NCBI RefSeq assembly: GCF_055900595.2
Contig: NZ_CM148325.1
Direction: 5' to 3' (one strand)
Length of the DNA stretch: 64,000 nt
Shown here one piece after another: positions 13,520 to 16,500 of this stretch. Position numbers: made by a program. The number at the start of each line of letters is the position of its first letter. Positions within the stretch are counted from its first letter, which is position 1.

Positions 13520-16500
13520 TAAATAAAACAGGAGGCGAAGGTGCCTCCCGTTTTATTTTGTGCACTCAGTATCTACTGAATGAATACGGTTTCAGACATC
13601 GGCACCATACGAAGTAAAGTGTACTGTAAGCTGATTGCAGGCTAGCGTATCCTGATTAGTAAAAGCACACTAAAGGAATAGCTTGATGCAACTTACCAAC
13701 GAAGAACAAGTACAGATTGCTCGTATAAAAGAAAAAATCCCACGCATTGCCGCACTGGATCCTGAATGTAAGTTATTCGGTTCTGAAGGTTGGAAATATC
13801 AATGGCCGAAGCCTGCCAGCGAGGCGGAAATAGCTTCCTGGGAGAAAAAACATAGCGTCACTTTGCCACGGGAATATCGAATTTTTCTTCGCTATATCGC
13901 TAATGGCGGTCCGGCACATGCCTACGGTCTTGAATCTTTAGGCGGTACAGATATTTATGGCGATATAACAAAAGAAAGCCCTGTACCGCTTTATATGACG
14001 CAGCAGGATGTTGATGTGTTGAATGCTGGCCGTACAGAAGATGATGAAGAATATAGTTTTTTTGACGGCGCATTGACCATTCTCACCCTGGGATGTACTT
14101 ATGATATTTGCCTGGTGGTGACGGGGCAGTATCGCGGAAGGTTAATGCTGACTGATGGTGATGAAGATTATCCGTTTGATTTTATATATGATAAAAATTT
14201 CCTCAACTGGTATGAACGCTGGCTGGACGATTTTATTGCTGGCATGAGTATGAAGGGTTTCGATAGAAGTTTGCCAGGAACGCAAATTCAACTGCGTGAG
14301 TGGTTTTTAACTGAGAAAATCCCGGATTTACGTAGATCCATTTTATTCTCGCTATGCCGTTTTCCACAGATAGAACCCGAAACATTTGCCCTTTGGGAAC
14401 ATGTTTGCCACACAGAGAATGATAAAGAATTGTGTGAAGAGGCATTCATAAGATTACGCCAAAAAAAAGTTTCTTGTGCTGCAGATATTTTTCGACTCTA
14501 TTTTACAATGCCAGATGAATTACGTGATATTGCTATTAAAGATCTCCGTTTTGCCTGTAGAGATAGTGTGGTGAATATTGAGGATTATATTCATTCACTG
14601 TTAATAATAATGCCTGAACTTGACGATGACACTCTATCCTCAGCTGTCTTTGCTATACGAGAAACAGAGTATAATAAATATGATACTTTTCTGCCGCTTC
14701 TCGAACGTATCACTGATGACCGTCAGCAAACATTATTGTGGGCGATGAGTAAGGCGCCTGATTTCAATGAAAGCCGAGGATTCATTGAGTTGGTATTACC
14801 GCTTTTTGCATCATCAAAGATGGAGAATGTAAGGAAGGCTATTTTGTTGCTCATTGAAGTTAAAGATAATCGTATTCCACCATTGGTTGATGAAGCTGCA
14901 ACTCGTTTCCCTGAACTGACCATTTTACGAGAAAACTACTATCTCAGGACGTGGGGACATAAGCCATAAATTAATGGTTCAGAAATGATCTAACGCGGAG
15001 AAAAATATGATCAGGGAACATATTCAGCAAGCGATAAATAATAGGTTAGCCTTTGATGGCCCATTCAATGTTGTTCCTGAACCTGCAAGCACTGCGTTTG
15101 ATAGCCGGATCCCGACATTGAAAAACGGTGTCTGGCAGAAGGCCAGCCCTATGTTGCAGGCGCGTTTTGCACATTGTGGACGTTGGTTAAGCGCTACACA
15201 TGGAAGCTGGCTAAGTATAAGTGACATGGAAACGCTTTGGCAGGAACACATAGAAGATACGTTTCTTGATGAAATCAAAATGAATGCTGTAGCTTCAAGT
15301 GATAATTGGGATAACCATGCCTTGGGACTATTTCGTTCTCATCGCCTGTCACTTTTTGCCGGTAGTGATTACAGTTATGAAATGGTTTTTCTCCTTTGGC
15401 TAGATAGTACCGTTGAGCCAGAGGTCTGGGTTTATGACTGCAATGGGGAATCACGTTATAAAGATCTTAATGATTACCTGAATGCATATATTAATGATGA
15501 CGTAAGCGCCTGTGAGTGCTCCTGGCGAGTAGAATGAATAGCCCCCCTTGCCCCTTTGATCCACAAACCGCACATTACCTCGGCACAGTGCAAATCCACT
15601 ACACCCAAACCGCCTTCAACGCTGCCGTTAAGCATTATACCTGTTACATTAAAAAGCGTTTTAAAGGGTTTAAATGGGGAATCCGAACCGCTGGCTTATT
15701 GGCTATACTGCCCATGATCCCACAATGGTTGAAACCTTCTCATGACTTTAAACTCAACGCAATCAGTACGTTAATTCTTCTATTAATGTTGCCACTCCTC
15801 TTATCAATGTTCCTGTTAATCAGCAGAAGAATTAACGATTTTAAGTCAAAAACAAAGCAAGTTACTTTTACGAAACCCGTGCGTTATGCGTTTTATTTCG
15901 AGGGGATTGTTTTTTATGAATCTCATCAGCAGGGCATACTTCGCTGGGAAGATTTTTATAGCATTGAGTATGAAGAAGATTATTTGTGGCTTTTTCTGCA
16001 TTTACCGAAGAGTTGTCCCAGAGAAGCGACGAAAGCGTTTTGCGATATTTTCATTCCCACCAGTGCGATAAAAGCGCAGCCTGAACTGGATACGTTTTTT
16101 CGTGAAACACGCCACTCGCTGGATTATCTGTTTGTCCCGTTTAATTCTGACAGAAAATAACATATCCCCCGTATCTGGTGAAACGGGGGATTTCGTCGCT
16201 TAACTTATCGGATTACAGTTTTGGACCAGCCGCTACCAGCGCGGCACCCGCAGGGGTGTCGGTGTATTTATCGAAGTTGTCGATAAACAGTTTCGCCAGC
16301 GTTTCAGCTTTTTCCTGCCACTGTTCCGGAGAAGCGTAGGTGTTACGCGGATCGAGGATCTTAGTGTCTACGCCCGGCAGTTCAGTCGGGATCGCTAAAT
16401 TAAACATCGGCAGAGTGAAGGTTTCTGCGTTATCCAGCGAACCGTTGAGGATAGCGTCGATAATGGCGCGGGTATCTTTAATGGAGATACGTTTGCCAGT

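Follow-up and report, generated by a model that had tools for sequence, protein, structure and literature searches.

A gene at the envZ-pckA site of Escherichia coli probably encodes an orphan SUKH-fold immunity protein against an Rhs-linked, nuclease-like toxin

Results

The ORF2 gene and its neighbors

Our analysis concerned a 64,000-nucleotide stretch of an Escherichia coli chromosome (hereafter the window; contig NZ_CM148325.1 of NCBI RefSeq assembly GCF_055900595.2) and, within it, a small open reading frame (ORF) that we refer to as ORF2. The gene order at the site is greB (minus strand), ompR, envZ, three plus-strand ORFs, pckA (minus strand), and yhgE, with ORF2 being the middle of the three ORFs. 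As detailed below, ORF2 is probably an orphan SUKH-fold immunity protein directed against a nuclease-like toxin carried at the C-terminus (CT) of Rhs proteins, which is an ordinary kind of gene. The features at issue are the following:

15007..15537, plus strand: ORF2, 176 aa, predicted SUKH-fold protein, putative orphan immunity against an Rhs-CT nuclease-like toxin (fold model, genomic context)
14997..15000, plus strand: GGAG Shine-Dalgarno sequence of ORF2, 6 nt before its ATG (read from the sequence)
13683..14969, plus strand: ORF1, 427/428 aa, N-terminal SMI1/KNR4 (SUKH-1) domain and helical C-terminal region (Pfam, RefSeq)
15534..16160, plus strand: ORF3, 208 aa, with a start that overlaps the ORF2 stop in an ATGA (RefSeq CDS, sequence)

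A first-pass annotation of this DNA had called an ORF at 15007-15537 located directly downstream of a SUKH-like protein, and both points were confirmed: ORF2 starts with the ATG at 15007, ends with the stop at 15537, encodes the 176 aa that had been quoted, and is separated from ORF1 by a gap of only 37 nt. Its RefSeq entry is WP_000617565.1, which is named simply as a hypothetical protein. The gene is unbroken at ≥99% identity in 18 complete genomes, and it is also unbroken in E. albertii, E. fergusonii, and other Escherichia isolates. Comparison with the E. albertii ortholog yielded a dN of 0.078 and a dS of 0.203, while comparison with a second Escherichia variant yielded a pN of 0.21 and a pS of 0.75, meaning that synonymous sites are saturated and the protein is still 66% identical. 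All of the invariant residues of the family are retained as well. ORF2 is under purifying selection and evolves as a protein.

ORF2 has a predicted SUKH fold that is not recovered by sequence profiles

Searches of ORF2 against Pfam, NCBIfam, PADLOC, and PHROGs returned no match. A profile search over 1.84 billion representatives identified 234 ORF2-family proteins at E ≤1e-3, and a set of 34 close relatives ranged from 48 to 84% identity, while a search of the PDB with the sequence profile of the family produced only noise (E ≥0.8). The Pfam hidden Markov models (HMMs) of the SUKH clan (PF09346, PF14567, PF14568, and related models) likewise did not match ORF2, nor did any Pfam SUKH model match any of 107 ORF2-family members at E ≤0.001, with a single SUKH_5 match at 0.053. 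The same Pfam search did identify leucine-rich repeat fusions (LRR_14, LRR_8, and LRR_4) in three remote relatives within the ORF2 superfamily.

Fold comparison gave a very different result. An AlphaFold2 model of ORF2, built from a 30-sequence alignment, had a predicted local distance difference test (pLDDT) score of 89.7 and a predicted template modeling (pTM) score of 0.87. A Foldseek search of AFDB50 with this model returned 45 proteins named SMI1/KNR4 or Knr4/Smi1-like among the top 50 matches, and the UniRef name for the exact ORF2 sequence is also 'SMI1/KNR4 family protein'. The earlier description of ORF2 as SUKH-like is supported by both results. Among the structures in the fold-comparison list, the scores were 9.3 for the Knr4 core, 8.7 for FBXO3, 8.2 for a Smi1/Knr4-family protein (3d5p), 7.6 for both the Bacteroides type VI secretion system (T6SS) immunity protein Tdi1 and YobK, 7.2 for Lin2918 (2icg), 6.4 for PSPTO_5518 (2pag), 5.9 for Syd, 5.3 for the Agrobacterium T6SS immunity protein Atu4351, and 5.1 for a Salmonella cytoplasmic protein (4iqn). 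Thus, as modeled, ORF2 adopts the alpha/beta fold of the SUKH superfamily.

ORF2 does differ from the SUKH immunity proteins of the clan that includes PF09346 (SUKH-1) and PF14568 (SUKH_6), as well as B. subtilis YobK (2prv) and yeast Knr4 (5j1b), in that it has no Pfam SUKH match. The first-pass annotation had correctly noted that a clear LP..Y..FL..NGG motif is missing from the protein. In place of the N-terminal LPxxYxxFLxxxNGG of the superfamily, ORF2 has a degenerate counterpart (SPMLxxRFxxxGxW), which is SPMLQARFAHCGRW at residues 47-60, and for which the family pattern is S47-P48-M-L-x-x-R53-F54-x-x-x-G58-x-W60. This segment would correspond to the SUKH motif helix, judging from its position in the model (helix 48-56) rather than from an alignment. 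ORF2 also has an additional N-terminal helix and a leader of ~30 residues. In sum, the SUKH assignment holds for fold and automated annotation, whereas it fails for the Pfam HMMs and for similarity to ORF1. The case argues for some caution in annotation, as the assignment was unrecoverable by sequence profiles and required fold comparison together with genomic context.

ORF2 homologs occupy the immunity position behind a shared toxin domain

The genomic context of the homologs points to a function for ORF2. In Pectobacterium parmentieri, only 20 nt separate the start of a homolog 56% identical to ORF2 from the end of a PAAR-Rhs gene encoding 1423 aa, which itself follows a VgrG gene and a DcrB-type chaperone gene. 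We used the last 128 residues of this Rhs protein as the toxin query for tblastn. When 100,044 species genomes were scanned, ORF2 homologs were identified at 20 loci, which were distributed among Enterobacterales, Burkholderiales, Rhodocyclales, Alphaproteobacteria, Pasteurellaceae, Bacteroidales, and a Deferribacteraceae metagenome-assembled genome. The same toxin CT, at 57-94% identity, ends 10-20 nt before the homolog in Lonsdalea, Serratia rubidaea, P. zantedeschiae, Azovibrio, Burkholderia turbans, and Aggregatibacter, and the Rhs cores at the toxin-CT loci are down to 26-31% identical. Overall, the homolog was found directly downstream of the toxin CT and co-oriented with it in nine loci, where the two are either 10-20 nt apart or overlap by 4 nt. 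Toxin-CT remnants were also present upstream of homologs in Brenneria and in metagenome contigs, while a plasmid collection contained a single, degraded ORF2 copy, which is located on a Sphingomonas plasmid close to a fragment of Rhs. No ORF2 homolog was found in a phage collection. In P. parmentieri (locus L003, 5979-6003), the 20-nt spacer between the Rhs stop and the immunity ATG is composed of two homopolymer tracts, T8 and then G8 (TAAAGTTTTTTTTGGGGGGGGTATG), which could be prone to slippage.

The arrangement also exists within E. coli. In strain 05-3629, a VgrG-DcrB-Rhs cluster (Rhs protein WP_032141712.1) is followed 12 nt later by a 176-aa homolog (WP_023155453.1) that is 54% identical to ORF2, and 70 of the 5426 complete E. 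coli genomes (~1.3%) have a VgrG-DcrB-Rhs locus with this toxin domain. A more distant ORF2-like gene occurs in 31 E. coli genomes, and in the one that we examined (2016C-3878) the 175-aa homolog follows an orphan Rhs-CT fragment with a 4-nt overlap and is located next to an imm11 gene. The Rhs orphan array of this strain (locus L041, 1-8518) includes a full PAAR-Rhs gene, two orphan Rhs-CT fragments, and an ISEc1 transposase gene at the end, with each of the orphan fragments having its own small downstream gene (one ORF2-like and one imm11).

Besides the Rhs DPxGL boundary, PT-HINT pretoxin modules (PF07591; ...LVHN motif) also precede this toxin CT (alignment A2). Because the toxin CT is found on PT-HINT as well as on Rhs, it is a mobile cassette with more than one delivery scaffold. 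Toxin and immunity identities were found to co-vary over nine pairs (Mantel r 0.90, p 0.0004), a correlation that is partly confounded by species relatedness. Hence, the CT and its immunity gene are found together on unrelated scaffolds and co-diverge, as expected of a cassette. In Bacteroidales, the homologs are instead found in same-strand arrays that include Imm19, Imm21, Imm32, Imm17, and SMI1_KNR4 genes and adjoin an integrase gene and genes of conjugative elements. This is the architecture of an acquired interbacterial defense island. Taken together, the toxin linkage, the decayed copies, the co-divergence, and the orphan arrays indicate that ORF2 belongs to a polymorphic-toxin immunity family. 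The 'immunity island' of the first-pass annotation is borne out in this respect, since homologs occupy the cognate-immunity position behind Rhs toxins and are also members of orphan immunity arrays.

The linked toxin is a predicted HNH-like nuclease

The ~128-aa toxin CT had no meaningful match in Pfam, NCBIfam, or the sequences of the PDB. An alignment of the family revealed invariant residues W37-N38, R50, G83-H84-x-x-D87-x-x-W-G-G, and V105-N106-x-Y-x-G-G. For modeling, the P. parmentieri CT was fused to its cognate immunity protein by a 30-residue Gly/Ser linker and both paired and unpaired alignment rows were supplied. The fusion model had a pLDDT of 87.6 and a pTM of 0.84, with the linker alone falling below a pLDDT of 50. 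In the model, H84 is located at the end of a strand and is followed by a strand at 98-102 and a helix at 103-115 that includes N106, which is a beta-beta-alpha-metal arrangement. Among the structures in the fold-comparison list of the toxin, the scores were 4.8 for both the Serratia Rhs2-CT HNH-type DNase and an HNH-bearing Cas8, 4.6 for the Gme HNH nickase, and 3.9 for the ZRANB3 HNH domain. Based upon this arrangement and the similarity of the model to HNH enzymes, we infer that the toxin is a NucB/HNH-like DNase. Pairing of SUKH immunity proteins with HNH/EndoVII toxins is a recurrent association according to Zhang et al. 2011, as quoted in bioRxiv 10.1101/391854. We also considered whether the toxin could be an Ntox15 member, given its GHTPD/HxxD motif and the Tdi1 fold match of ORF2, but it had no Pfam Ntox15 match and its model is NucB/HNH-like.

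ORF2 as a probable orphan immunity protein

The most plausible account of ORF2, and one we regard as likely, is that of a cytoplasmic single-domain SUKH-fold (SMI1/KNR4-like) immunity protein that would be kept without its toxin. Its family would serve as the cognate immunity of the ~128-aa toxin CT, which is located mainly on T6SS-delivered PAAR-Rhs proteins and sometimes after PT-HINT, and which would act as a beta-beta-alpha-metal (HNH/NucB-like) DNase, the invariant residues being G-H84-x-x-D ... N106. ORF2 would bind an incoming toxin of the same family 1:1 in the cytoplasm and block its nuclease activity, and thereby might shield strains lacking the toxin from toxin-producing neighbors. 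It would presumably be co-transcribed with the unrelated ORF1 and ORF3 in a small, horizontally acquired island at the variable envZ-pckA site. The reading of ORF2 as an orphan is based upon two results: tblastn with the toxin CT and the Rhs core detected neither in the 64-kb window, and none of the 60 listed genomes, of the 70 that carry the toxin, is among the 18 E. coli genomes with the island.

Several observations weigh against this interpretation, starting with the very lack of a toxin beside the window copy. The identity of ORF2 to the toxin-linked immunities is no higher than 46-56%, and cross-protection is therefore not assured. The fold of ORF2 and that of the toxin both rest upon AlphaFold2 models, while the Pfam SUKH models fail to match either ORF2 or its family. 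The pTM of the fused chain is indirect evidence for a toxin-immunity interface, and the Mantel correlation carries the confounding mentioned above. Finally, a simple immunity role does not explain why ORF2 and ORF3 have stayed coupled in Escherichia.

A useful precedent for cross-protection is provided by the orphan SUKH immunity genes of Bacteroidales, in which proteins 37-39% identical to the cognate immunity protect against a WHH (HNH-superfamily) T6SS effector by binding it with high affinity (PMC12247911). The 46-56% identity of ORF2 to the toxin-linked immunities is within the range of 35-62% reported for the orphans of recombinase-associated acquired interbacterial defense (rAID) systems relative to their cognates (PMC12247911). 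Like ORF2, the orphan 'I2' of the rAID/AID systems is an effector-less SUKH-fold immunity gene that has diverged from its cognate, and both would be directed against an HNH-superfamily T6SS nuclease, which in the case of ORF2 is deduced from the models. Bacteroidales members of the ORF2 family are themselves found in rAID-like arrays. There are also clear differences, as I2 has two SUKH domains and ORF2 has one, the toxin family linked to ORF2 is not WHH, and the window contains a fixed three-gene island with no recombinase and no long array. Two other systems were compared as well. In relation to Tde/Tdi (Ntox15/DUF1851; 8g0k, 6itw; PMC10470768), the toxin linked to ORF2 lacks a Pfam Ntox15 match and has a NucB/HNH-like model, ORF2 itself does not have the GAD-like/DUF1851 architecture, and 'structural disruption' is the mechanism of Tdi1. 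In relation to Rhs2-CT/RhsI2 of Serratia marcescens (9t38; bioRxiv 10.1101/2025.10.28.685041), there is no sequence similarity, and the window copy is without an Rhs partner.

With this reading, a gene listed by NCBI as hypothetical gains a probable function, and it becomes linked to a toxin-immunity pair that is absent from Pfam and NCBIfam, namely an Rhs-CT predicted to be a NucB/HNH-like DNase together with a SUKH-fold immunity protein. Approximately 1.3% of complete E. coli genomes have both the weapon and the antidote, while a separate 0.3% have the antidote alone, in a diverged form and at another locus, which is the pattern expected for acquired interbacterial defense as documented mainly in gut Bacteroidales. 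If cross-protection does occur, this would extend acquired interbacterial defense to Enterobacteriaceae and provide a simple E. coli model for it.

The envZ-pckA site carries variable cargo

The three ORFs occupy an insertion with the following limits:

13531..13548, plus strand: envZ intrinsic terminator (terminator scan, alignment with the K-12 envZ-pck spacer)
~13580..16200, no strand: low-GC three-gene insertion between envZ and pckA (composition profile; the K-12 site is empty)

The composition profile revealed a GC content of 0.41 over 2.6 kb, compared to ~0.52 in the flanking DNA. The spacer in K-12 is only 75 nt and island-free according to its alignment. The envZ terminator, which K-12 also has, delimits the conserved DNA on the left, with the insertion starting after it, while the right edge is immediately before the pckA stop (terminator scan and K-12 alignment). 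We found the entire insertion, at ≥98.9% identity, in 18 of the 5426 complete E. coli genomes, and the island also exists in E. albertii, E. fergusonii, and other Escherichia isolates. No recombinase was found in the island of the window, which consists of the three genes between envZ and pckA; a tyrosine recombinase at the head of a long array of orphan immunity genes, as in rAID systems, is not part of it.

Three other arrangements were found at the same position. The second variant has a 142-aa HEAT-like ORF in the place of ORF1, followed by an ORF2-like gene (66% aa identity) and an ORF3-like gene (59-64%). The third, in strain A30 and E. fergusonii, has a 346-aa HEAT::ORF3 fusion without ORF2, and the fourth, in strain N3, has a RelE/ParE and NadS pair. 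The spacer (13560-16200 in the window) is thus a site of variable cargo in Escherichia, empty in K-12. In one E. albertii assembly (locus L014, 4681-5963), the ORF1 ortholog is split into ORFs of 295 aa and 132 aa by an apparent frameshift, which suggests that the island genes are dispensable; the ortholog is unbroken in the E. albertii type strain (locus L019).

Alternative explanations and the neighboring genes

One alternative is that ORF2 is a functionless relic, i.e. an immunity gene left over from a decayed Rhs or orphan cassette that is no longer selected. In favor of this, ORF2 has no toxin in its vicinity, few genomes have the island (18/5426), relatives show decay in the form of the frameshifted ORF1 of an E. 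albertii strain and the deletion of ORF2 in A30, and a dN/dS of ~0.38 reflects only moderate constraint. However, we consider this unlikely, as ORF2 is unbroken with a good Shine-Dalgarno sequence, is ≥99% identical across the 18 genomes, and is intact in other Escherichia. Furthermore, dN is lower than dS, the second variant has saturated synonymous sites yet a 66% identical protein, and every invariant family residue is kept.

A second possibility, which we view as comparably improbable, is that ORF2 functions as part of a defense or regulatory module with a neighbor, either as an ORF1-ORF2 heteromer or as a sensor paired with a membrane effector encoded by ORF3. By reading of its sequence, ORF3 has two hydrophobic stretches followed by a C-terminal domain of ~100 aa; the stretches are likely transmembrane segments and the protein is probably a membrane protein. 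Its only matches were marginal (YcxB at 0.57, MASE8 at 0.03, and PADLOC PycTM at 0.0097), and no match was found for it in plasmids, phages, PHROGs, or NCBIfam. The ATGA overlap of ORF2 and ORF3 is in favor of a module, as is the joint occurrence of the two genes in two diverged Escherichia island types, in which they have co-diverged. The weak PycTM match (E 0.0097) would also fit, but it is marginal and covers a hydrophobic segment, and ORF2 has no PADLOC or PHROGs match of its own. In a tblastn census, ORF3 was found to accompany ORF2 only in Escherichia. Outside of this genus, ORF2 homologs are never flanked by a relative of ORF3 or of ORF1; in nine loci a toxin CT is found instead. ORF3 survives without ORF2 as the HEAT::ORF3 fusion of A30 and E. 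fergusonii. A more specific form of this idea, for which the chances seem slimmer still, is that in the translationally coupled ORF2-ORF3 pair the SUKH-fold protein senses or captures an incoming effector (or a protein of a phage) and passes a signal on to the membrane protein encoded by ORF3. If so, the pair would form an active system of response instead of a passive antidote, and the envZ-pckA site that houses it would be a hot spot for cargo that has not been described before. Apart from ORF3, nothing at the locus invites a more unusual interpretation.

As for the heteromeric pair that had been proposed for ORF1 and ORF2, our survey of co-occurrence provided no support. ORF1 has few relatives, and its SUKH protein accompanies ORF2 only in the Escherichia island of the window type. 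Outside of Escherichia, no locus had an ORF1 relative beside an ORF2 homolog, with the sole ORF1-like match being a weak SMI1/KNR4 gene ~1.6 kb away in a Bacteroidales array. ORF2 is not an obligate partner of ORF1.

The first-pass annotation had also described a 'tandem paralog pattern' with a C-terminal core common to both proteins, but neither claim survived pairwise and profile comparison. BLASTP of ORF2 against ORF1 gave an E of 3.4, with the top alignment falling in a different region than the proposed core. Smith-Waterman alignment of the two quoted segments scored 31 versus 24.1 +/- 4.8 for shuffled sequences (z 1.4), a score reached by 10% of shuffles and therefore not above chance, and the full-length shuffle test gave a z of -0.08. 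Using hhalign, the ORF2 family (30 or 107 sequences) and the ORF1-SUKH family (7 sequences) were matched with a probability of 0.1-0.2% and an E of 0.34-0.74, the profile on the ORF1 side being shallow because the search for its SUKH family yielded only six relatives. The similarity whose absence was to count against the original proposal was accordingly undetectable both between ORF1 and ORF2 and, at the level of sequence profiles, between ORF2 and SUKH families, with the SUKH assignment rescued by fold comparison only. Although both genes have a known or predicted SUKH fold, are adjacent on the same strand, and in the case of ORF2 include a modeled strand-strand-strand-helix at 126-162 that resembles the SUKH C-terminal pattern, it is highly improbable that they are a duplicated SUKH gene with a homologous core, since these comparisons show no similarity, the two belong to separate families of different distribution, and over 41 loci searched an ORF1 relative was beside ORF2 only in the window-type Escherichia island. 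As far as sequence comparison can tell, ORF1 is a member of a separate SUKH family and no detectable paralog of ORF2.

ORF1 itself is annotated in RefSeq as an 'SMI1/KNR4 family protein', and its residues 44-170 match Pfam SMI1_KNR4 (2.7e-6) and SUKH_6 (3.4e-5), with no Pfam match in the helical C-terminal region. The mechanical call of its start is a TTG at 13683, while RefSeq uses the ATG at 13686 (427 aa), and the 428-aa form is present among some deposited proteins.

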